DNA from: Minisyncoccota bacterium
GTDB lineage: Bacteria > Patescibacteriota > Minisyncoccia > Phycocordibacterales > UBA1006
Direction of reading: 5' to 3'
Assembly: GCA_021734445.1 (NCBI GenBank)
Contig: JAIPIY010000003.1
Location: 1 to 62,075 of the forward strand
DNA length: 62,075 nucleotides
Shown here one piece after another: positions 920-61,430 of the stretch; positions within the stretch are counted from its first letter, which is position 1; each line of letters opens with the position of its first letter. Below the pieces are notes generated by a model, which had not been told where the DNA came from, ran no database searches, and saw nothing but the letters and a program-made list of their open reading frames with translations. The position numbers and the translations under genes are program-made.

Positions 920-1708
920 TTATCTTTTTACATCAAAGTATTTAGGTATTTCAGATAATATCCAATTATTAATTCCATCGATAACATCTTGAATTATCTT
1001 TTTATCTGTTGTTGGATTTAATGCCAAATGTAATACCTGGTGCATTTCCGATTCTTTTTCTGGGTAGTATTCTGAAAAATCTTTGTAGCACAAATATAAA
1101 TCCCTGGTATATCTTTTAGATCTTTCCATGGTTAATTCAAAACCTGTACGTAAAAAACCTTTCATTACCCAAGTGCAGAATTTCTTCATTTCTTCGTCAT
1201 CAGATTCCTCGGCAAGGAATTTTTTATATTTTACTAATCGATTATGGAAATTGGGTGCATGACTGACCATTTCTTTTCCTGGTTTCATTTTTGGTATAAC
1301 CAATGGTTTTCCATAAATACAAACAGACTGATTTAAGAGAATATAATCTTCTTCTATTATAGATAGCGGGTCTGCACTCATTTCAATATTATTTACAAAA
1401 TCATATTTTTCTTCTATGTGGGCACGCATTTTTCTGTTGGTTGAATTTTCTTTGAGATATTCTGCCGATTCATCTACATATGCAAAAGTATCTAAGTCAG
1501 AAATATAAGGTATTGCCTGACCTTTTGCTACGGATCCACGTAAATAAACTTGTTTTAATGCATCTCCGTATTTTTCTTTGTAGAGATTAATAACATCCTG
1601 AATTACTGCTTGATATTCGGGTTGTATGTTATCCAAAGATGCTGGATTAATCAGGTATCCATCTGTATCAATGTTAAAATAAGAACCCGTGGGTTGAATT
1701 TGTATCAT
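920..1708 (-). CDS. nucleotidyltransferase-fold protein (AadA/ANT-like)
   Basis: LRGSVAKGQAIPYISDLDTFAYV matches the GS...(D/E)xD minimal nucleotidyltransferase signature. Size and helical C-terminal half resemble adenylyltransferase-type NTases. Confidence 0.55.
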   Translation of the reverse strand: MIQIQPTGSYFNIDTDGYLINPASLDNIQPEYQAVIQDVINLYKEKYGDALKQVYLRGSVAKGQAIPYISDLDTFAYVDESAEYLKENSTNRKMRAHIEEKYDFVNNIEMSADPLSIIEEDYILLNQSVCIYGKPLVIPKMKPGKEMVSHAPNFHNRLVKYKKFLAEESDDEEMKKFCTWVMKGFLRTGFELTMERSKRYTRDLYLCYKDFSEYYPEKESEMHQVLHLALNPTTDKKIIQDVIDGINNWILSEIPKYFDVKR

Positions 1709-1756
1709 AATAGTTTTGTTGCTTTGTGTTAAAAAGTATACTACACTAAAAACAAG

Positions 1757-2058
1757 TTTGCACTTTTAGGTAGCTTTGGGGAGACTTAGTAATGGCGAAT
1801 GAAAAGTCCTTATCACCAACACCGGTCCCCAGAGTGAAATACACCTTATTGCTTCAGCATACGCCGAAAGGCTCCGTGATTCAGTTCACAAATATGCGAT
1901 GATGTCCCCTTCTTATCTGTCCTTTATGTGACTTTGTCCGTAAGACATAAGAAGTGTGTTCTACCTGTAGGAACCCTTTGGGGTGACAGTCGTCAGAACC
2001 AGACGGAAGTAATACGTGCGAGCCCACCCCTGTAGACGAGTTCTATGGGGGTGTTTTT
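1757..2058 (+). ncRNA. orphan structured RNA with its own terminator; RNase P RNA-like motifs (tentative, unassigned)
   Basis: About 300 nt GC-enriched non-coding stretch with no ORF. It contains several strong local hairpins (GCC-GAAA-GGC at about 1863-1872; CTTCTTA..TAAGAAG at about 1908-1954). It ends in CACCCC..GGGGGTG + TTTTTT (2025-2058), which fixes the strand. GAAAAGTCC, AGAGTGAAA and CGTCAGAACC resemble RNase P CR-I/CR-II/CR-IV, but I could not build a convincing P4 helix. Confidence 0.4.
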
Positions 2059-2159
2059 TATATAAAAAATTTCTTTGAAAAAAGCATGACCAGAACTTGA
2101 TTTAAGATATTTATCAAATGTTGCACCATGTGCTTCAAAAATAATTTCTAACCTCACGT

Positions 2160-2390
2160 TTAATCACTTAAACAGCTAAATATATTCTTTTGAAAACTCG
2201 ATATGTCTTGATTTGTTACTTCAAGGTCATTTACAGTAGAGTGACGAGCTTTTTCAAGATTTATCGCCATATCAAAACACTGTCTCATTTTTACTTCTTG
2301 TCGATAGGGCTGACAAAATGCGATATATGTTAAGAGGAGTACAACTATCGATAAAAGGATAAGATTTATTTTTTCTATTTTCATATTCAA
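2160..2390 (-). CDS. small hypothetical protein with N-terminal membrane anchor
   Basis: 76 aa ORF with hydrophobic N-terminus INLILLSIVVLLLTYIAF; no recognisable family. Confidence 0.35.
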   Translation of the reverse strand: MNMKIEKINLILLSIVVLLLTYIAFCQPYRQEVKMRQCFDMAINLEKARHSTVNDLEVTNQDISSFQKNIFSCLSD

Positions 2391-2467
2391 AAAATATTAT
2401 AATACGATACTACAAAAATCGAACGATACATAGTGAATCTTATAATCTGAGACATAATCCTGTTTTG

Positions 2468-2540
2468 TGGACCCGACTGGATTCGAACCAGCGACCTCCT
2501 CAGTGCAAGTGAGGCGCTCTACCAACTAAGCTACGGGCCC
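2468..2540 (-). tRNA. tRNA-Ala (anticodon UGC)
   Basis: Minus-strand cloverleaf GGGCCCGTAGCTTAGTTGGTAGAGCGCCTCACTTGCACTGAGG...GGTTCGAATCCAGTCGGGTCCA. Anticodon loop is CTTGCAC. The G3:U70 pair is present. CCA is not encoded. Confidence 0.9.
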
Positions 2541-2706
2541 AATGCCATTTGCCAAAAAGGCAATAATGGCTTGTGTTTCAGATATAATCCAAAACACAAT
2601 ATTAAACGTGAAAAGAACAACCTTCCCTATTGTACTGGTCTTTTCAAGAAATGCAAGACCTTTTTACAAAAAAGTCACAATTTCTTGTGGATATATAGGA
2701 TTAATC

Positions 2707-3648
2707 CTATATATTTCTTTTTGTTGCCAACTGCACAATATGCCAAATAAAATCATGAAATTTCACACCTACAGCGGTCAAACTGTGATCTAAAATACTG
2801 CCCACGGTCAAATCTGGTAATGCATGAACGCCAGTGATGATGATTCCCCGTTTTGGATGCACAATCATGTCTATCTGAGAATAATGTCGCAAGTGAAAAA
2901 GTCTATGAATTTTTTCTGCGATTTGTTGCACTTGCTTGCTTTCTTCTAATGAAATTGATGCTGGGCATAATCTTGTTTCTTTGTCGGAATATGGTTCGCA
3001 GGTTTCTACGGGGATACAGGTATAGTGTTCTTGTTCACGGAGATTTTCTATGACAATAACAGAAATGTGTTTACCACGTAATAATTCTTGTACCACAATA
3101 TCTTGGCCATCACGAAATGATGATTCTATTGCATGCACTAATTCTTGGAATGAATGCGCGATACGAATTCCGGTGACACCTTTTTTTGTTGGTTTTATTA
3201 ACCACGGCGGACTGATGGTTGCATGGACTTGACTTGCTGTATCGTATGCCTGTTCTGGATCTTGATTTCGTATAAAAATACTGGTGGGTGTTTTTACGTC
3301 ATGTAGTTTCAAAAAATCATTGGTGGTGTGGTGATGCGATGATATAAATACAGGATGCGTATGTGACCCCGTAAACGGCACTGGTAAAGATGCCAGTGTG
3401 TGCAATATATCATGCTCATGATGATGTCCTTCGTGTAATGCATTAAATACAATATCAGTATCGTGGACCAATGGTTCCATCACTGATGCATGAAAATCAT
3501 CATCCGCGTGTTCATAAGAAATAATAACATCATGAGGTTGAACATGGTGTCGGTGTAATGCAGAAAGAACTCGTCTTCCTGTTTCAAGAGATAGATTGTG
3601 GGTATGAATATTTCCCCCACGAAGAACTGCAATGCGAAGCGGTCTCAT
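2707..3648 (-). CDS. ddl: D-alanine--D-alanine ligase family (ATP-grasp) protein
   Basis: N-terminus RIAVLRGGNIHTHNLSLETGRRVL matches the Ddl start (AVLxGGxSxExxVSLxSG). Length and C-terminal ATP-grasp-like segment fit. Unusually His-rich. Confidence 0.6.
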   Translation of the reverse strand: MRPLRIAVLRGGNIHTHNLSLETGRRVLSALHRHHVQPHDVIISYEHADDDFHASVMEPLVHDTDIVFNALHEGHHHEHDILHTLASLPVPFTGSHTHPVFISSHHHTTNDFLKLHDVKTPTSIFIRNQDPEQAYDTASQVHATISPPWLIKPTKKGVTGIRIAHSFQELVHAIESSFRDGQDIVVQELLRGKHISVIVIENLREQEHYTCIPVETCEPYSDKETRLCPASISLEESKQVQQIAEKIHRLFHLRHYSQIDMIVHPKRGIIITGVHALPDLTVGSILDHSLTAVGVKFHDFIWHIVQLATKRNI

Positions 3649-3696: not shown

Positions 3697-4941
3697 CTAT
3701 CTTTGAATTTTTCTTTTTGATTTGTGATACGTAATTGCAAATCGATGAGCTTCATTGTTTGCAAGAAGAATGTGTTTTTTATATTTTTCAATAATATCTT
3801 CTACACCCATAAGCGCCTTTGGTTTGTGTTTTTCATCTTTGACTACAGCAACAATGGGTGCAGATATGCCATATAATCGGCAAATTCGTTCGGTAACTCT
3901 TTTTTGAGCCTTTCCCCCATCAACGACAATAAGGGACGGACTTCCCCATCCTGGATGCCCAAAACGACGTGTTAATATCTCTTCTAACGCTTTGGTATCA
4001 TTTGATTTGTTTACACTGCGTATGATGAATTTTCTGTATGCTGATTTTTGTGGTTCGCCATTTTCTATTACTGTCATTACCCCGACCATATTGTCGCCCT
4101 GCAAATGCGCGATATCAAATGCTTCGATGCGAAATGATTCTTTTGATGTATGTGTTTCATGTCGCAACAATGCAATATCATTAATATGTTCCAATGCAAA
4201 AATTTGTCTTTTGATTCTGTCGGCTTCTTCGAATTCTTGTTTTTGCGCTGACGTGTGCATGTTTTTTCGCAATCGTTCGATCAACGTATTTTTCTTTCCC
4301 GATAAAAAAAGTTCAAGACCTTTGATATTTTTCTCATAGGTTTTTTGAAACGAATCCTCGGTATCTTTTGGAGCTAGCCCCAAAGACATATAAAAATCTT
4401 TTGCATGAGATTGTGTTGATTTTTCGTCAAAAAATGGAAATAATTTACGAAGAATTTTCAGTGCAGTTCGTGCAGATGCACCCGATGGAAATGGACCAAA
4501 AAAAGACCGTAGCACTATTTTTTTTGACAATTCTGTCGGGTGGGCGATTTTTTTCGTGAAATCAATATCTCGTTCTCTGATCAGTAAAACCCGTGGTAGC
4601 GATTCTTTGGTAATCGCAATCATGTAATAGCTTTTGTTGTCTTTGTCGCGGGTATTGTATGTTGGTTGATGTTCTTTGATCAAACGTGATTCCGCCAATA
4701 ATGCTTCTAATACAGAATCATATGTTTCCCAAGTAATTTTTGTAACCTGAGAAACCATTTCAACAATTTTAGGACCACGAGACTGGTTAATATCTTTGTT
4801 TGCATAACTGGAAATTCTGTCACGTAATGACGTTGCCTTTCCAATATAGAGAAGATTTTTATTATTCCAGAAAAAATACACGCCAGGAGATTCTGGTGCT
4901 GGTTGTGCCATCTGTACTATTTCCGAACGATGTATTTTCAT
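3697..4941 (-). CDS. uvrC: excinuclease ABC subunit C, short form
   Basis: GIY-YIG N-terminus (GVYFFWNNKNLLYIGKATSLRDRISSY), UVR-like helix (EEADRIKRQIFALEHI) and a C-terminal NEAHRFAITYHK motif. It ends before the usual (HhH)2 domain. Confidence 0.8.
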   Translation of the reverse strand: MKIHRSEIVQMAQPAPESPGVYFFWNNKNLLYIGKATSLRDRISSYANKDINQSRGPKIVEMVSQVTKITWETYDSVLEALLAESRLIKEHQPTYNTRDKDNKSYYMIAITKESLPRVLLIRERDIDFTKKIAHPTELSKKIVLRSFFGPFPSGASARTALKILRKLFPFFDEKSTQSHAKDFYMSLGLAPKDTEDSFQKTYEKNIKGLELFLSGKKNTLIERLRKNMHTSAQKQEFEEADRIKRQIFALEHINDIALLRHETHTSKESFRIEAFDIAHLQGDNMVGVMTVIENGEPQKSAYRKFIIRSVNKSNDTKALEEILTRRFGHPGWGSPSLIVVDGGKAQKRVTERICRLYGISAPIVAVVKDEKHKPKALMGVEDIIEKYKKHILLANNEAHRFAITYHKSKRKIQR

Positions 4942-4943
4942 TG

Positions 4944-6044
4944 TTAAAACAATTTTACAATATCATTGAATGTAACCACAATCATGAGTCCAATCAAGAA
5001 AAGAAATCCACCGGTGTTTACCCATAATACTGCTTTTTCTGGTAGTGGTCGTCGTAATATGGATTCAATGGCAACTACCAATAATCTTCCTCCATCTAAT
5101 GCTGGAATAGGTAAAATATTTATCACTGCAAGATTAATAGAAATCAAAGCCGTAAACCAAATGAGATAACCAAAACCAAGATCTGATGCATCTCCGACAC
5201 TTTTTACAATACCGACAGGGCCAGAAACATTATCCAGACTGGTTGTCGGTGATACGACCAGGCTTTTGAAAAATCCTAATGTTCCCCAAAAGATTGCTTT
5301 TGTGGTATCTACGGTCATGGAAACACTTTCAGAAAATGCAGTTGGTAGATGATTGATATACGCAGTACCAATAGTATCAACGGCAATACCAATTTTTTCG
5401 TTTTCAGCAAAAGCATCTTTTTCGATATAGATTTCAGAAATTTCTTCGTTGCGTTCAATTATAATCGTTGCATCTGATTCAGCATTTCGAATTTGTTCAA
5501 AAATAGTTGTTATCTCTGCTGGATGTTCAATTATTTTTGTTTCTTCTTGGAAATTGATTGATTGCACCGTGTCACCCGATTGTAATTCCAGTGTTTCTGC
5601 AACCGATCCGGAGATGACCTGAATAATCGCTACATGAGAATCTCTGAAAACGGTATTTTCGGGTGCATTGGTTTGCATCATGGGCATACCAACCCACGCA
5701 AGACCAATAAAAATCAATAACCATGCAAAAAGGAAATTCATGGTTACCCCGGCAATTAGCACTAATGCCTGCAAATATCGTGGTCGTGAAGTAAATGCTG
5801 TAGGAGAAGGTTCTTCTGTTTTTTCTTTACCATCTTCACCTTCTATTTTTACAAAACCACCCAACGGAATTGCATTAACAGAAAACAATGTTCCCTTCCA
5901 GGTTCCTATTTTCCATACACGTGGAGGAAATCCAAAACCAAATTCTTCGACTTTCATACCTGACCAACGCGCAACAAAAAAGTGTCCAGCTTCGTGAACT
6001 AATACCAAAAGAGCAATAATGAGAATAAAAAGAATGATTCCCAT
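4944..6044 (-). CDS. rseP: RIP metalloprotease RseP/site-2 protease (M50)
   Basis: HEAGHFFVA HExxH motif in the first TM segment, an internal PDZ-like segment and a C-terminal NLAVINILPIPALDGG motif. Confidence 0.85.
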   Translation of the reverse strand: MGIILFILIIALLVLVHEAGHFFVARWSGMKVEEFGFGFPPRVWKIGTWKGTLFSVNAIPLGGFVKIEGEDGKEKTEEPSPTAFTSRPRYLQALVLIAGVTMNFLFAWLLIFIGLAWVGMPMMQTNAPENTVFRDSHVAIIQVISGSVAETLELQSGDTVQSINFQEETKIIEHPAEITTIFEQIRNAESDATIIIERNEEISEIYIEKDAFAENEKIGIAVDTIGTAYINHLPTAFSESVSMTVDTTKAIFWGTLGFFKSLVVSPTTSLDNVSGPVGIVKSVGDASDLGFGYLIWFTALISINLAVINILPIPALDGGRLLVVAIESILRRPLPEKAVLWVNTGGFLFLIGLMIVVTFNDIVKLF

Positions 6045-7286: not shown

Positions 7287-8306
7287 CTAAAAACCTTTTT
7301 TAGAGAGCACGGTTTTTTTATAAGTGTGTAAATGATTCAATGCAACTCCAGTTCCCTTTACCACGCAGTACAATGCATCATCAGCTAAAGATGCTTTTAC
7401 CCCTGTTCGTTTATGTACTAATTCTGGTAGGTTTCGCAATAATGAACTGCCACCCGTCATAATAATGCCATTATCAATAATATCTGATGCTAATTCCGGA
7501 GGAGTTTCTTGTAGTACATCTTTTATGGCTTTGATCATTTGTCGTAATTCGCTATCGATTGCTTGTACTATTTCATTGGTTTTAATATCAACTGACCGAG
7601 GTAATCCGGTGATATAATCGCGTCCTTTGATAGTTAATGATTCTTCTTCTGCCAATGGTAATGCTGCACCTATTTTAATTTTTATTTCTTCTGCGGTTTT
7701 GTCACCAATAGCAAGATTGAATGTTTTTTTAATATAATCGGTAATGGATTGGTCTATTTTATTACCTGCACATTTTACTGATGTGCAAGCAACAATTCCC
7801 CCTAATGAAATTACCGCAACATCTGTGGTGCCACCCCCGATATCCACAACCATGTATCCTTGTGATTCATGAATGGGAATTCCTGCGCCAATAGCTGCAA
7901 GAATAGGTTCTTTTACTACGTATGCATTTTTTGCTCCGGCTCGTAATGCTGCTTCTACTACGGCACGACGTTCTGTGGATGTTACCCCTGCTGGTACAGA
8001 AATCATCACGTCGGGTTTGAAAATATTCCAAGAGCCCAAAGATTTTGTAATGTAATAACGCAACATGGCTTCGGTGATACGATAATCCGCGATAACTCCA
8101 TCACGCATAGGGCGATATGCAACAATAGCATCAGGTGTTTTTCCTATCATGTCTTTTGCTTCTGATCCGATAGCAAGAATTTTATTGTCGTATTCTGAAA
8201 CTGCAACAACAGAAGGTTCATTTAAAACAATTCCCTTGCCAGGAACATATACCAATGTATTTGCTGTACCTAAATCGATACCTAATTTGGGGCTGAAAAA
8301 ACTCAT
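7287..8306 (-). CDS. mreB: rod shape-determining actin homologue MreB
   Basis: MSFFSPKLGIDLGTANTLVYVPGKGIVLNEPSVVA... is a canonical MreB N-terminus. The ORF-track start at 8336 adds 10 poorly fitting residues. Confidence 0.9.
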   Translation of the reverse strand: MSFFSPKLGIDLGTANTLVYVPGKGIVLNEPSVVAVSEYDNKILAIGSEAKDMIGKTPDAIVAYRPMRDGVIADYRITEAMLRYYITKSLGSWNIFKPDVMISVPAGVTSTERRAVVEAALRAGAKNAYVVKEPILAAIGAGIPIHESQGYMVVDIGGGTTDVAVISLGGIVACTSVKCAGNKIDQSITDYIKKTFNLAIGDKTAEEIKIKIGAALPLAEEESLTIKGRDYITGLPRSVDIKTNEIVQAIDSELRQMIKAIKDVLQETPPELASDIIDNGIIMTGGSSLLRNLPELVHKRTGVKASLADDALYCVVKGTGVALNHLHTYKKTVLSKKGF

Positions 8307-22043: not shown

Positions 22044-22149
22044 CACTCGTGACGGTGAGGGTTCTCGAGATAGAACCAACCAGAGTCCTTACCCCATAAT
22101 GTTATTTTAATGTTTTTAGTATAACATTTTGACCCTTCTCGTGCGACTA
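22044..22149 (-). repeat. island repeat element A (pseudo-tRNA-3'-end module)
   Basis: Aligns with 23802-23919. Shared plus-strand blocks are GGTGAG, AGATAGAACC, TTACCC, TTTTTAGTAT and an identical 19-mer GACCCTTCTCGTGCGACTA (22131-22149 = 23901-23919). On the minus strand it ends ...GGTTCTATCT..CCCTCACCG, resembling the tRNA-Glu 3' end. Confidence 0.8.
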
Positions 22150-23801: not shown

Positions 23802-23919
23802 CTTCTCGTGCAAGCACGAATTGGTGAGCCTTTAACAGATAGAACCCCTGTGGTTCATTACCCTGTAAGGCGGTTTGTTATTTTTTTAGTATGTCATCTC
23901 GACCCTTCTCGTGCGACTA
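23802..23919 (-). repeat. island repeat element B (pseudo-tRNA-3'-end module flanked by direct repeats)
   Basis: Bounded by CTTCTCGTGC at 23802-23811 and 23905-23914. The minus strand reads TAGTCGCACGAGAAGGGTC...GGGGTTCTATCTGTTAAAGGCTCACCA-ATTCGTGCTT-GCACGAGAAG. This parallels the real tRNA-Glu end GGGGTCACCA-TCAACAGCGC-GCACGAGAAG. Confidence 0.8.
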
Positions 23920-50414: not shown

Positions 50415-51659
50415 ATGTTTACATATTTTTTTTTAGAAACATTAGCGGGTTTGATTGGTTTTAGTGCTTTTATAATAATTCTATATGTTATTTGGAAAAA
50501 AGGAATAAAAATATCTTTATTTCAAGACAGATATTTTTTGTTTGTGTTTGGTTTATTTATTCTCATGGTTGGTATGGGTTTTTTTGCAAATAAAACATAT
50601 CCGCCGAACTTTGCGATGCCGTCTTTTATGCATTCACATGCCCCAGGCGGACTCCCGCCATCTATTCCTTTTGCTAAAATTATAGATTTTTTTAGATATG
50701 AAAATCGTTTCGATAAGGTTACTGATATTGGTGCGGACCCAACAGTTGTTCCGGAAAAACCCCAAACCCCTGATGCGGACGGTATTGTGCGCATTAGCTT
50801 GACTGCACAAGAAGTTCTTTCAGAAATATCTCCAGGAATTTATTTCAATTATTGGACATACAATAAACAAGTTCCTGGTCCAATGCTTCGTATACGTGAA
50901 GGCGATACAGTAGAATTAACACTTACAAATGATCCATCAAGCCTTCATGATCATAATATAGACCTACATGCGGTTACAGGCCCAGGAGGTGGGGCTTCAA
51001 TTACTCATGTTGCACCCGGAGAAACAAAAACATTTAGATGGAAAGCATTAAACCCAGGACTTTATATATATCATTGTGCGATGCCAAATGTTTCTACACA
51101 TAATTCACATGGGCAATACGGAATGATTTTAGTTGATCCAAAAGAAGGGCTTGCCGAAGTTGATAAAGAATTTTATGTTATGCAGGGAGAACTTTACACT
51201 ATGGGACAATTGGGTAAAAAAGGTCTTGTTGCTTTTGATTCTAACGCCTTAATTGATGGTCAACCAAATTATATAACATTTAATGGTCGCATTGAAACAA
51301 CGCCCCGAATGCAAGCAAAAGTGGGAGATAAGATTCGTATGTATGTTGGTAATGGTGGCGTAAACCTCATTTCATCTTTTCATGTAATTGGTGAGATTTT
51401 TGATACTGTGTATCCAAATGCAAGTATCGGTGGCGCAATAGAATATAATACACAAGCAACTGCTGTCCTACCTGGTGGAGCGAGTATTGTGGAATTTACG
51501 GTTGATGTCCCTGGTAAATACTTACTTGTAGATCATGCTCTTGCACGGATGAATAAGGGTGCGTGGGCAGTACTTGAGGTGACGGGAGATGAGAACCCAG
51601 AGATATTTAAAAAGATTGAAACCAAAACAAATATGTCAGAAGACATGGAAATGCATTAA
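50415..51659 (+). CDS. nirK: copper-containing nitrite reductase (NirK-type) with N-terminal membrane anchor
   Basis: HDHNIDLHAVTGPGGG and YIYHCAMPNVSTHNSHGQYGMILV match the NirK type-1/type-2 Cu ligand blocks. A start at 50376 is possible but overlaps the arsR-like gene. Confidence 0.8.
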   Translation: MFTYFFLETLAGLIGFSAFIIILYVIWKKGIKISLFQDRYFLFVFGLFILMVGMGFFANKTYPPNFAMPSFMHSHAPGGLPPSIPFAKIIDFFRYENRFDKVTDIGADPTVVPEKPQTPDADGIVRISLTAQEVLSEISPGIYFNYWTYNKQVPGPMLRIREGDTVELTLTNDPSSLHDHNIDLHAVTGPGGGASITHVAPGETKTFRWKALNPGLYIYHCAMPNVSTHNSHGQYGMILVDPKEGLAEVDKEFYVMQGELYTMGQLGKKGLVAFDSNALIDGQPNYITFNGRIETTPRMQAKVGDKIRMYVGNGGVNLISSFHVIGEIFDTVYPNASIGGAIEYNTQATAVLPGGASIVEFTVDVPGKYLLVDHALARMNKGAWAVLEVTGDENPEIFKKIETKTNMSEDMEMH

Positions 51660-51668
51660 TTAAATACT

Positions 51669-51696
51669 AAAAAAAGTGACAATGGTCACTCTTTTA
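51669..51696 (+). terminator. Rho-independent terminator after nirK
   Basis: AAAAAAAGTGAC-AATG-GTCACTCTTTT. Confidence 0.65.
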
Positions 51697-51789
51697 GTAT
51701 TTATGCAAAGTTCGAATGTCTCAAATGGGTCAATTTTTGACCTAATAAAAACACTTACAAACTAAAGCATCTCGTGCTACCTGTTAAAG

Positions 51790-51987
51790 GCGGGCCCACG
51801 AGGATTCGGTCACTCTCGTGGATTTTTTATTTCTCCGCTAGTTGGCGGATTATAAAAAATCTCACTCACTCGACCCCCACTCGCCGGTTCTGTTATCGCA
51901 GGCTTCGCACCGGCTCGGTTCGAATCCTCGTCATTCCGCGCATCGACAACCCAATCGGGTAATTAGACATTACCCTTTCGGGTCGTT
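51790..51987 (-). repeat. tRNA-linked structured element, copy C1 (3' of tRNA-Trp)
   Basis: The 19-nt direct repeat GCGGGCCCACGAGGATTCG (51790-51808) equals 51988-52006 inside tRNA-Trp. There is an 11-bp closing helix ACGAGGATTCG (51798-51808)/CGAATCCTCGT (51921-51931). The internal blocks are shared with the copies at 60667-60786 and 61214-61328. Confidence 0.8.
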
Positions 51988-51988
51988 G

Positions 51989-52059
51989 CGGGCCCACGAG
52001 GATTCGAACCTCGGTCAACGGTTTTGGAGACCGCTATTCTACCACTGAACTATAGGCCC
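51989..52059 (-). tRNA. tRNA-Trp (anticodon CCA)
   Basis: GGGCCTATAGTTCAGTGGTAGAATAGCGGTCTCCAAAACCGTTGACCGAGGTTCGAATCCTCGTGGGCCCG; anticodon loop CTCCAAA; CCA not encoded. Confidence 0.9.
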
Positions 52060-52085
52060 TTATATTTAAAACAAATCCAGTATAA

Positions 52086-52114
52086 CAAAAAAGTAGCCGT
52101 GTGGCTACTTTTTT
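52086..52114. terminator. bidirectional terminator hairpin
   Basis: AAAAAAGTAGCC-GTGT-GGCTACTTTTTT between tRNA-Tyr and tRNA-Trp. Confidence 0.6.
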
Positions 52115-52343
52115 GATTCATTGAAAGTGATGTGCTTTCGCAGAGTTTTACTATATTTTCGAAGTTTTAGTTTGAATGAAGCCAACTTTTTCTTGTTCTT
52201 AAAAGTCGGGTATACATCCCCCTTTGCTTCTTTGCTTTTTAAATATATAAGGTTATCTTGTGACATAGGATTCTATTACGCTTGTAGCTCTCTGATATTA
52301 CTATAAAACCAATTAAAAATCAACCTCTCACTACTGTTGACTG

Positions 52344-60469: not shown

Positions 60470-60541
60470 GGCCTGGTGGCGAAGTGGAAACGCTGGAGTC
60501 TGCAAAACTTCCATGCGCGGGTTCGATTCCCGCCCAGGCCT
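60470..60541 (+). tRNA. tRNA-Cys (anticodon GCA)
   Basis: GGCCTGGTGGCGAAGTGGAAACGCTGGAGTCTGCAAAACTTCCATGCGCGGGTTCGATTCCCGCCCAGGCCT. Confidence 0.9.
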
Positions 60542-60542
60542 C

Positions 60543-60569
60543 AAAAATTGTCATTGATGACAATTTTTG
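60543..60569 (+). terminator. terminator-like hairpin after tRNA-Cys
   Basis: AAAAATTGTCA-TTGA-TGACAATTTTT. Confidence 0.6.
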
Positions 60570-60666
60570 CCCCACCTCAAAGAGGTGGCCAATCTTTACG
60601 TAGTAAAGCAGGCCAGGGGTAACATACAAGATAATACGGAGTATTAGATTGTTTTTGTTTTTAGAT

Positions 60667-60786
60667 TGGGCGGGAATCGAACCGAGAGTGCGCGAAGCCG
60701 GACGATAGTCCGTGCACCCGAGTGGAGGTCAAGGGCGTGAGATTTTCTGAAAGAAAATCCACAAGAGTGACCGATCCCGCAAAGAG
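60667..60786 (+). repeat. tRNA-linked structured element, copy C2 (3' of tRNA-Cys)
   Basis: The left end TGGGCGGGAATCGAACC (60667-60683) is a perfect inverted copy of tRNA-Cys 60520-60536. The closing helix is GCGGGAATCG/CGATCCCGC. Internal blocks GCGCGAAGCC, CCGAGTGGAGGTCA, GTGAGATTTTC..GAAAATCCAC and AGAGTGACCGA are shared with C1. Confidence 0.8.
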
Positions 60787-61078: not shown

Positions 61079-61159
61079 GCCGGGATGATGGAATGGTAGA
61101 CATAAGGGACTTAAAATCCCTGGGCGCAAGCCGTGCGGGTTCGAGTCCCGCTCCCGGCA
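61079..61159 (+). tRNA. tRNA-Leu (anticodon UAA)
   Basis: GCCGGGATGATGGAATGGTAGACATAAGGGACTTAAAATCCCTGGGCGCAAGCCGTGCGGGTTCGAGTCCCGCTCCCGGCA; CCA not encoded. Confidence 0.9.
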
Positions 61160-61164
61160 CAGAA

Positions 61165-61206
61165 ACAAACAATGATAATGCCAAGGATTATCATTGTTTT
61201 TGTTTT
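61165..61206 (+). terminator. terminator hairpin after tRNA-Leu(UAA)
   Basis: AACAATGATAAT-GCCAAGG-ATTATCATTGTT followed by TTTGTTTT. Confidence 0.6.
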
Positions 61207-61213
61207 ATAGTCT

Positions 61214-61328
61214 GGGACGGGACGAGAAAGACGGAGGCGCGAAGCCGATTCGTAGAATCGCTGCCGAGTCAGGGTCGTGAAATTTTGCGTAGCAAAATAT
61301 TCCTGACCGAGTCCTGCTCCCGGCACCA
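61214..61328 (+). repeat. tRNA-linked structured element, copy C3 (3' of tRNA-Leu UAA), ending in a tRNA-Leu-like 3' end with CCA
   Basis: It ends CGAGTCCTGCTCCCGGCACCA. Positions 61308-61326 equal tRNA-Leu 61142-61160 with one mismatch. Internal blocks GCGCGAAGCC, CCGAGTCAGGGTCGTGAAATTTTGC..GCAAAAT and CCTGACCGAGTCC are shared with C1/C2. Confidence 0.8.
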
Positions 61329-61330
61329 AG

Positions 61331-61368
61331 ATAAACAAGGATACTGCACTGCAGTATCCTTGTTTATT
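61331..61368 (+). terminator. strong terminator hairpin after element C3
   Basis: AAACAAGGATACTGC-ACT-GCAGTATCCTTGTTT followed by ATTAT. Confidence 0.65.
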
Positions 61369-61430
61369 ATATACAGACAACAAATGTTTTTTCCTGTATA
61401 CTATACAAGAACATTGTAAATCAAAGACCG

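Follow-up and report, generated by a model that had tools for sequence, protein, structure and literature searches.

A tRNA-linked family of structured RNA units with RtT-like architecture in Patescibacteria

We analysed a 62,075-nucleotide (nt) stretch of contig JAIPIY010000003.1 (hereafter the window, numbered along the forward strand), a chromosome segment of a Paceibacterota/Parcubacteria-like Patescibacteria bacterium. The window encodes a short IF-2, ClpB, MurB, MiaA and similar proteins, and the best homologues of its IF-2 carry the names Paceibacterota, Parcubacteria or Patescibacteria. It contains 12 tRNA genes, and only at tRNA-Trp, tRNA-Cys and tRNA-Leu(UAA) are sense and antisense copies of the tRNA 3' end found downstream. 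These copies enclose three elements of about 120-150 nt, here called C1, C2 and C3 (Table 1), whose neighbours are housekeeping genes. The elements belong to a new, widespread, tRNA-linked family in the candidate phyla radiation (CPR) with an architecture analogous to that of the Escherichia coli RtT RNA, and the family lies outside the Rfam entry for RtT.

At C1, a first-pass annotation made from the sequence alone had noted a 19-mer, GCGGGCCCACGAGGATTCG, that occurs twice. Our searches found it exactly twice in the window, as A2 and A1 of C1 (none expected from 100 shuffles), and its second copy is indeed the 3' end of tRNA-Trp, a gene called by both ARAGORN and Rfam. The small hairpins and the 134-nt fold described between the two copies are likewise present in the sequence. 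In the tRNA-strand RNA, an 11-bp helix formed by ACGAGGATTCG (51798-51808) and CGAATCCTCGT (51921-51931) closes the minimum-free-energy structure, which has an energy of -55.9 kcal/mol (z = -4.69), a stability reached by 0 of 200 shuffles. One arm of this helix, A', had been read as an antisense copy of the tRNA T-arm. It is antisense to the T-loop and the 3' strand of the T-stem of tRNA-Trp, but it proved to belong to a longer imperfect palindrome that also takes in the tRNA 3' end and its trailer. Trailer, A1 and A' make one long imperfect hairpin in the fold of the co-transcript.

Using a covariance model trained on 21 copies (model R1; C1 and C2 in the training set, C3 not), we obtained scores of 132 bits for C1, 116.6 bits for C2 and 29.7 bits for C3 (E = 5e-6) and no further match in the window. 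The proposed homology of C2 and C3 to C1 is thus upheld, for C3 from outside the training set. About 30 further copies were recovered from Patescibacteria contigs. Gapped pattern matching based on C1-C3 gave true relatives in Campbellbacteria-, Vogelbacteria- and Saccharibacteria-labelled contigs, and searching metagenomes with an 18-nt block, AAATCCACRAGAGTGACC, gave about 20 more; the core is kept across contigs with these three labels and with that of Paceibacterota. So far, the family has been seen only in ultra-small CPR/Patescibacteria bacteria. Pattern matches in Tannerella, Halovivax, Pseudomonadales, Verrucomicrobiales, Pyrinomonadaceae and Planctomycetota were chance hits, mostly in coding DNA, and were rejected by model R1, as was about half of the metagenome matches, again mostly coding DNA; a scan of viral contigs gave a single match that we judged to be chance. 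BLAST against phages and plasmids found no match, and a literature search found no description of such an element in CPR bacteria. At gathering threshold, an Rfam 15 scan of the whole window returned tRNA and no other family, and at E <= 10 over the C1 region (51600-52100) it returned only sub-threshold chance matches. No curated Rfam 15 covariance model of a ribozyme, intron or tRNA-like RNA matched. Inspected by eye, hammerhead, hairpin and other ribozyme cores likewise failed to fit the junctions.

All copies share one layout, running from the tRNA body through A1, a trailer hairpin, A' and the core to A2, in units of about 110-190 nt that hold no open reading frame (ORF). A1 extends from T-loop C56 to the tRNA 3' end and A2 is a sense copy of it. 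The AT-rich trailer hairpin contains runs of A and of T. A', the reverse complement of A1, often reaches into the acceptor strand and is usually continuous with the trailer, which yields a long imperfect palindrome (perfect over >26 nt in one copy, L049; related loci are given by such L numbers). A' and A2 form the closing helix P1, which in C3 and in L033, L015 and L053 covers the acceptor copy largely or entirely, so that N-CCA is left as a tail. As had been proposed for the three window elements, this helix is re-matched to the local tRNA, and we saw the same in about 25 further copies. As a correction to the first-pass annotation, the distal tRNA copy in C2 is truncated to CGATCCCGC.

The type-A core, exemplified by C1, is a three-way junction in which J1/2 reads GAACCGAG and J2/3 reads CGAGUGGG. 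P2 is hypervariable in sequence and carries a GCGAAGC mini-hairpin and a variable hairpin; P3 is GGUCR/UGACC (GGUCG/UGACC in C1), with an internal loop AGGGA/GAGAG and a P3b helix GUG/CAC; and P4 (AUUUU/AAAAU, with a distal hairpin in C1) ends in a UGNRA cap or is extended through a UGAG/CGAA tandem-G·A motif. The P4 loop varies among UGAAA, UGCAA and UGUAA, and Watson-Crick pairs stand in for the tandem G·A motifs in some variants. C3 has a type-B core that shares the P1/P3 frame with type A. Around it, a 69-nt direct repeat, D3 (74% identity), relates A1 plus trailer (61142-61210) to A2 plus a second hairpin (61308-61376).

Base-pair statistics were computed over 26 type-A copies (25 distinct) and compared with 500 shuffles. 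Canonical pairs filled 96.7% of pair cells compared to 79.9% in shuffled data, and double changes occurred at 14 of 28 pairs and at all six pairs of P2. The covariation score was 0.471 versus 0.137, a value that no shuffle reached, and sliding the partners abolished the signal; the covariation suspected from three copies therefore persists with more sequences. Because both arms of P1 derive from a tRNA, covariation there is partly built in, and it is P2 to P4 that carry the argument. In C3, the helix that is kept across homologues is GGUCG/UGACC and not the GTCAGG/CCTGAC proposed in the first-pass annotation. Read on the tRNA strand, the copies contain 39 G·U and 6 A·C pairs, with alternation of G·U and A·U in P3, so that the tRNA-sense strand is the structured one, in line with the earlier remark that the wobbles are valid only in that orientation. 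Together, the covariation, G·U bias, UGNRA loops and tandem G·A motifs indicate that the conserved structure is RNA, on the tRNA strand.

Most copies with enough upstream sequence sit just 3' of a co-oriented tRNA gene, and at least 12 anticodons are represented (hosts are Trp, Cys, Leu-UAA, Leu-UAG, Leu-GAG, Asp, Arg-CCU, Ser-GCU, Ser-UGA, Gln-CUG, Gln-UUG, Tyr and Val-UAC). Where the upstream tRNA is intact, the copy always lies 130-250 nt downstream in the same orientation. L032 is only an apparent exception, as it follows a tRNA-Asp with an anticodon-loop intron of about 230 nt that ARAGORN missed; Rfam made no group I intron call for this insertion. Four orphans (L015, L033, L034 and L059) have only degenerate tRNA-end remnants upstream. 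Tandem arrays of different core types follow a single tRNA in L005, L009 and L032; in the first two, a type-A unit precedes a type-B unit and each ends with a fresh A copy. L052 has a third core type and two units separated by a 1.4-kb ORF-bearing segment.

Two close relatives were identified through IF-2 (L065-L069, 92% amino-acid identity; L070, 83%), and both are syntenic with the window. L070 has elements at the same three tRNAs, with Trp and Leu(UAA) cores that are strongly diverged or different. At tRNA-Cys, a gene 100% identical between the window and L070, the orthologous elements differ by compensatory changes (P2 AGUGC/GCACC versus ACGUC/GACGU, and also P2b). L065 has no element there, the gap to the next tRNA being 105 nt compared to 292 nt in the window; its Leu(UAA) locus holds a type-B copy full of transitions and its tRNA-Trp an AT-rich residue. 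An empty site thus exists among the Trp, Cys and Leu loci, but its junction is not what simple excision between A1 and A2 would give. The spacer before C2 comprises an AT-rich hairpin (AAAAATTGTCA..TGACAATTTTT), a block X (CCCCACCTC..GAGGTGG..GGGGTAAC) and a terminator-like hairpin, hp1. The empty L065 site keeps hp1. The hp2-X module precedes the element in the window, follows A2 in L070 and is missing from L065, which points to a history other than one clean insertion or excision. Block X (60543-60625), which consists of CCCCACCTC-AAA-GAGGTGG and CTTTAC-GTAG-TAAAG closed by CCCC/GGGG, with the AT-rich hairpin on its 5' side, may itself be another small movable module.

Relationships between cores cut across the tRNAs they accompany. 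Over 89 nt, the core of C3 is 96.6% identical to the type-B copy that follows tRNA-Ser(GCU) in L005; its similarity to the L070 orthologue is much lower. The whole C1 unit, trailer included, aligns at 82% to the type-A unit after the same tRNA-Ser(GCU), the trailers alone being about 90% identical, and the two units differ mainly in A1, A' and A2, in the variable P2 strands and by a P4 insertion. Core similarity, in general, does not track tRNA identity. Over evolutionary time the family behaves like a set of cassettes: copies appear, disappear and change from one tRNA to another, and A' and A2 are re-matched at every such change. Selfish spread would fit this behaviour, as a rival or a complement to the RNA reading, and template switching over the A1-hairpin-A' quasi-palindrome is a plausible candidate route for the rewriting of A' and A2. 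The terminal CCA of A2 might have been the trace of an RNA intermediate, an idea that was dropped because the L065 tRNA-Leu(UAA) gene itself encodes CCA, the difference being a one-base indel.

The closest architectural precedent is RtT RNA (RttR; RF00391), the 178-bp repeats of the E. coli tyrT/tyrV operon. In NC_000913.3, each RtT unit ends with AATCCTTCCCCCACCACCA, which runs from the tRNA-Tyr T-loop to CCA, and an antisense segment, GGGGAAGGAT, lies about 110 nt upstream of it. The annotated RttR 3' end is that CCA, with units after tyrV and between tyrT and tyrV, and the closing helix of the RF00391 consensus is GGGGAAGGAU/AUCCUUCCCC, again antisense and sense tRNA-end segments. Because the E. 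coli units and the Rfam consensus pair the same segments, we regard the architecture as the same. Like RtT, the CPR units lie downstream of or between co-oriented tRNA genes, end in a copy of the tRNA 3' end that starts in the T-loop, are closed by an antisense and a sense copy of the T-stem 3' strand, occur in tandem and are of similar size (about 130-170 nt in RtT). The RtT 'P1-GAGAA' junction also appears in type B and in some type-A variants. Several differences stand against these likenesses. The cores show no detectable homology. The K-12 region we examined ties RtT to one tRNA (Tyr), whereas the CPR family uses at least 12 tRNA species with re-matched stems; a palindromic trailer joins A1 to A' in the CPR units and has no counterpart in E. 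coli RtT; and RtT units carry a small tpr ORF, whereas CPR units have none. The first-pass statement that this is not a described RNA family accordingly stands as far as Rfam is concerned but overlooks the precedent in design.

For the units themselves, the explanation we favour, and to which we assign roughly an even chance, is an RtT-like structured RNA transcribed with its tRNA, the ends of which are defined by mimicry of the tRNA 3' end. Under this model, read-through from the tRNA promoter would transcribe the unit on the tRNA strand, and the RNA would fold into the three-way junction with P1 pairing A', antisense to the T-loop and T-stem 3' strand of the upstream tRNA, with A2, the sense copy of the same 3' end. 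Since A2 reproduces the tRNA 3' terminus, the maturation enzymes of the adjacent tRNA (RNase P, RNase Z or exonucleases, and the CCA-adding enzyme) would probably release and trim the RNA, much as RtT RNA of the tyrT operon is annotated to end, after which the conserved core would presumably bind a protein or RNA partner. What the sequences show directly is the anatomy, that the three copies are homologous, that an RNA-type structure is conserved and on which strand, the association with tRNA genes and the RtT-like architecture; co-transcription, processing by tRNA enzymes and the trans-acting partner are what we infer. The first-pass annotation had left two readings, a tRNA-cotranscribed RNA and an integrative element. 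The former is the better supported, by the covariation, the 39:6 ratio of G·U to A·C pairs, the GNRA-type loops and the lack of an intervening promoter-like site, since in the window sigma-70-like sites were found upstream of the tRNA or after the element and none between them. It also gains indirect support from L076, where a type-B-like copy lies between tRNA-Leu(UAG) and tRNA-Lys and its A2 ends 8 nt before tRNA-Lys, and from the copies in which P1 leaves N-CCA. The latter explains real features, but no enzyme gene recurs nearby and the one empty site does not fit a simple A1 x A2 excision.

A parallel can be drawn with the tRNA-like domain of tmRNA, viral tRNA-like structures and mascRNA, because several copies offer an acceptor/T-stem-like stack with an N-CCA tail that, by analogy, would recruit tRNA-processing enzymes. 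Unlike in those RNAs, the acceptor part is dispensable in many CPR copies, and the units have no T-loop because the core replaces it. ARAGORN and Rfam called no tmRNA or tRNA-like family. Full mimicry of a tRNA minihelix as a universal requirement was rejected, given the many copies with a short or decayed A2.

Several observations weigh against a co-transcribed, RtT-like RNA. The AT-rich hairpins and U-runs between tRNA and element could terminate transcription, though a terminator scan did not call these hairpins terminators. In many units the acceptor end of A2 has decayed or been shortened (C2, L021, L040, L027 and L049), so a complete tRNA-like 3' end is not universally required. In most cases A' fits A1 and its trailer no worse than it fits A2, and it may be the A1-hairpin-A' palindrome that is maintained. 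The family is also patchily distributed: a copy was detectable at 1 of 18 tRNAs in four more distant Paceibacterota loci, and the copies of the closest relative are lost or decayed, which makes for a poor fit to an essential host RNA. Nor is there covariance-model similarity to RtT in either direction: RF00391, which as a control recovered four copies in E. coli at 133-138 bits, had no match in the window at its gathering score (45 bits) and none at E <= 10 over 51600-52100, and model R1 had only insignificant matches in the tyrT region (best E = 0.26). Finally, a recent preprint calls the mode of action of rtT unknown and mentions a possible link to tyrT processing and the stringent response.

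Possible, though on balance unlikely, is that the units are non-autonomous mobile DNA cassettes. A small circle (A, trailer, A' and core) would integrate by crossover at or near the T-loop, with A1 taking over as the tRNA 3' end and the original end moved away as A2; when single-stranded, A-hairpin-A' would form a duplex copy of the attachment site, much as integron attC or CTX-phage attP does, for an integrase, Xer recombinase or HUH/Y1 enzyme encoded elsewhere and acting in trans. Direct repeats from the T-loop to the tRNA 3' end are the classical signature of tRNA-targeting integrases, and the units have such repeats at both borders, in C3 with D3 running past the tRNA into trailer and terminator. 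Integrative elements that target tRNA genes, said to be exemplified in a 2002 paper by Williams in Nucleic Acids Research, and their integrase-less, CIME-like derivatives resemble the units in these flanking repeats, in leaving the tRNA intact, in tandem accretion and in presence/absence differences. Cassette mobility would also account for the arrays in L005, L009 and L032, the ORF-bearing segment within L052, the variable presence and module order among close relatives, the C3 core that is closer to the L005 copy than to its L070 orthologue, the recurrence of the C1 unit and trailer after tRNA-Ser with A1, A' and A2 changed, the indifference of core similarity to tRNA identity, the orphans beside degenerate tRNA remnants (L034 and L059) and the Y1 (IS200-like) transposase gene of one related genome.

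The enzyme is where this account falters. Clustering of flanking ORFs at 23 loci returned syntenic housekeeping genes and no recurrent integrase, reverse transcriptase, Rep or Y1 protein; none of these, a Y1 homologue included, was found in the window, no integrase or recombinase gene lies in or next to the element, and there are no phage or plasmid matches. The empty L065 site retains hp1, unlike the product of A1 x A2 excision. Each new tRNA would require A' and A2 to be rewritten coordinately, and we know of no integrase that does so. Compared with integrative elements, the CPR unit is 100-fold smaller, geneless and equipped with an internal inverted attachment copy and a conserved RNA-type core, and its att-like arms follow the local tRNA. 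Similarly, integron attC sites, CTX-phage attP(+) and REPIN/RAYT systems share an imperfect palindrome that could rebuild a duplex site from one strand, as well as arrays, the lack of ORFs and, on this reading, dependence on an enzyme in trans. The CPR units show no association with IntI, Xer or RAYT, their arms are not conserved between copies (so that the conserved terminal inverted repeats of a REPIN or a miniature inverted-repeat transposable element are missing, A' and A2 following the local tRNA instead), and the variation of GNRA-type loops and the tandem G·A motifs favour RNA over DNA structure.

Somewhat further from our expectation, and in our view rather improbable, is that the units are ORF-less mobile elements that retarget themselves by a nucleic-acid-templated route, A' and A2 being rewritten from each new tRNA, with RtT as a fossil of that process. 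The layout formally resembles that of a long terminal repeat and primer-binding site, in that A plus trailer is repeated on both sides of an A' complementary to the tRNA 3' end. It resembles a prime-editing guide RNA equally well, in which a guide at the 5' end is followed by a scaffold and by a 3' segment complementary to that guide. The route could be tRNA-primed or target-primed reverse transcription, or a rod-shaped single-stranded circle whose stem mimics the end of a tRNA gene.

Distinctly improbable, in our judgement, is that the element acts in cis on the upstream tRNA, as a switch or to direct its processing. In read-through transcripts, pairing of A' with A1 would unfold the acceptor and T arms of the tRNA into a long hairpin, pairing of A' with A2 would form P1 and free the tRNA, and the core would decide between the two, for example through factor binding, thereby tuning tRNA maturation or decay. 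The three-segment arrangement with alternative 1:2 and 2:3 pairings is universal, A' is kept complementary to A1 and trailer (as in the perfect L049 palindrome), folds of the tRNA-Trp and tRNA-Leu co-transcripts pair A1 with A' and the 5' acceptor strand of the tRNA with A2 (z = -7.7 and -6.5), and Rfam files RtT as cis-regulatory. Nevertheless, orphans with no functional upstream tRNA keep core and P1 intact (L033, L034 and L015), most tRNAs and the closest relative manage without the element, co-transcriptional folding would favour the tRNA first, and no ligand or factor is known.

Fold-back template switching yields direct-inverted-direct zigzags centred on hairpins, and the A, A', A series on hairpins together with the decaying L065 copies could suggest that palindromes at tRNA terminators drove switching or duplication and left an arrangement with no function. 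This is hardly credible: covariation largely excludes functionless duplication, a core of about 100 nt keeps near-invariant junctions, compensatory changes and G·U bias across four contig labels, and chance cannot place the same core at 12 or more tRNAs.

Table 1 Features of the three tRNA-linked elements in the window.
Feature	Position	Strand	Evidence or sequence
tRNA-Trp(CCA)	51988-52059	minus	ARAGORN; Rfam tRNA, 70.2 bits; repeat search
A1 of C1	51988-52006	minus	last 19 nt of tRNA-Trp, T-loop C56 to 3' end
C1 trailer hairpin module	51932-51987	minus	CAACGACCC-GAAAG-GGTAAT..ATTACC..GGGTTGTCG, then GCGCGGAATG
A' of C1	51921-51931	minus	reads ACGAGGATTCG along the tRNA strand; forms the 5' side of P1
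C1 core, type A	51809-51920	minus	RNAalifold consensus; model R1, 132 bits; pair counts; single-sequence fold
A2 of C1	51790-51808	minus	sense copy of tRNA-Trp 3' end, CGAATCCTCGTGGGCCCGC; 3' strand of P1
tRNA-Cys(GCA)	60470-60542	plus	ARAGORN; Rfam
Spacer modules, tRNA-Cys to C2	60543-60665	plus	sequence; three-way alignment with L070 and L065
C2, type A	60666-60780	plus	model R1, 116.6 bits; orthologue in L070; absent from L065
A' of C2	60666-60679	plus	TTGGGCGGGAATCG
C2 core	60680-60771	plus	
A2 of C2, truncated	60772-60780	plus	CGATCCCGC
tRNA-Leu(UAA)	61079-61160	plus	ARAGORN; Rfam
Trailer hairpin after tRNA-Leu(UAA)	61161-61211	plus	direct repeat D3; sequence
C3, type B (distant homologue of type A)	61212-61328	plus	model R1; type-B alignment and consensus fold
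A' of C3	61212-61223	plus	CTGGGACGGGAC
C3 core	61224-61308	plus	
A2 of C3	61309-61328	plus	GAGTCCTGCTCCCGGCACCA, CCA at end

Other features were recorded in passing, in the window and at the related loci. An rpmG ORF (ribosomal protein L33, 54 codons, minus strand, 52112-52276), too short for our list of ORFs of 100 amino acids (aa), lies between tRNA-Tyr and tRNA-Trp, and the gene order ClpB, tRNA-Tyr, L33, tRNA-Trp is kept in L065 and L070. Elsewhere in the window, a 45-nt direct repeat (84% identity; 22105-22149 and 23875-23919; ...TTTTTAGTAT..CAT.T.GACCCTTCTCGTGCGACTA) adjoins the ends of two neighbouring minus-strand genes and may be a common regulatory or terminator element. L076, from a related Paceibacterota genome, carries as a single gene the coding sequence of a 200-aa Y1_Tnp protein (IS200-like, RAYT-like; 7552-8154, minus strand; 31.4 bits against a cutoff of 23) between ClpB and an aminotransferase gene, and neighbours of the tRNA-Cys cluster include an HNH gene (L076) and GIY-YIG genes (L073 and L074). 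In L032, a LAGLIDADG-type ORF of 218 aa (4380-5320; about 700-1640 when oriented to the minus strand), with the motifs LGFLFADGN and IRGYFDGDGN, lies between tRNA-Met and the intron-bearing tRNA-Asp. The L052 array (1657-3504) begins with tRNA-Gln(UUG) and the third core type (GAACGGCGGAGCG...GCGGGAC) in the same A'/A2 frame, and continues with a 432-aa ORF (no Pfam match) between CGAGACGCGTC repeats, a degenerate tRNA-end remnant, the same trailer hairpin and a type-A unit. L061 has two identical type-A copies in inverted orientation near the ends of a 9-kb contig (1677-1862 and 7295-7480), either a real inverted duplication or an assembly artefact. Lastly, tRNA-Arg(CCU) of L004 (3366-3438) has U·U mismatches in its acceptor stem and T stem, and its A2 differs from A1 at one T-stem position, which may signal exchange between copies.

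These results extend the short list of non-coding RNAs from CPR/Patescibacteria by a widespread structured RNA that Rfam lacks, and an unusual one in that a conserved core is closed by a stem that the upstream tRNA gene re-specifies. The RtT layout, long seen as an oddity of enterobacterial tyrT, recurs at many tRNAs in a very distant lineage and therefore points to a general principle, be it maturation by tRNA enzymes, a tRNA-coupled switch or tRNA-directed spread. If the units prove mobile, no smaller tRNA-targeted cassettes would be known, and no described mechanism would account for their retargeting. The roughly 30 diverse copies now at hand make the underlying principle open to comparative and biochemical tests.

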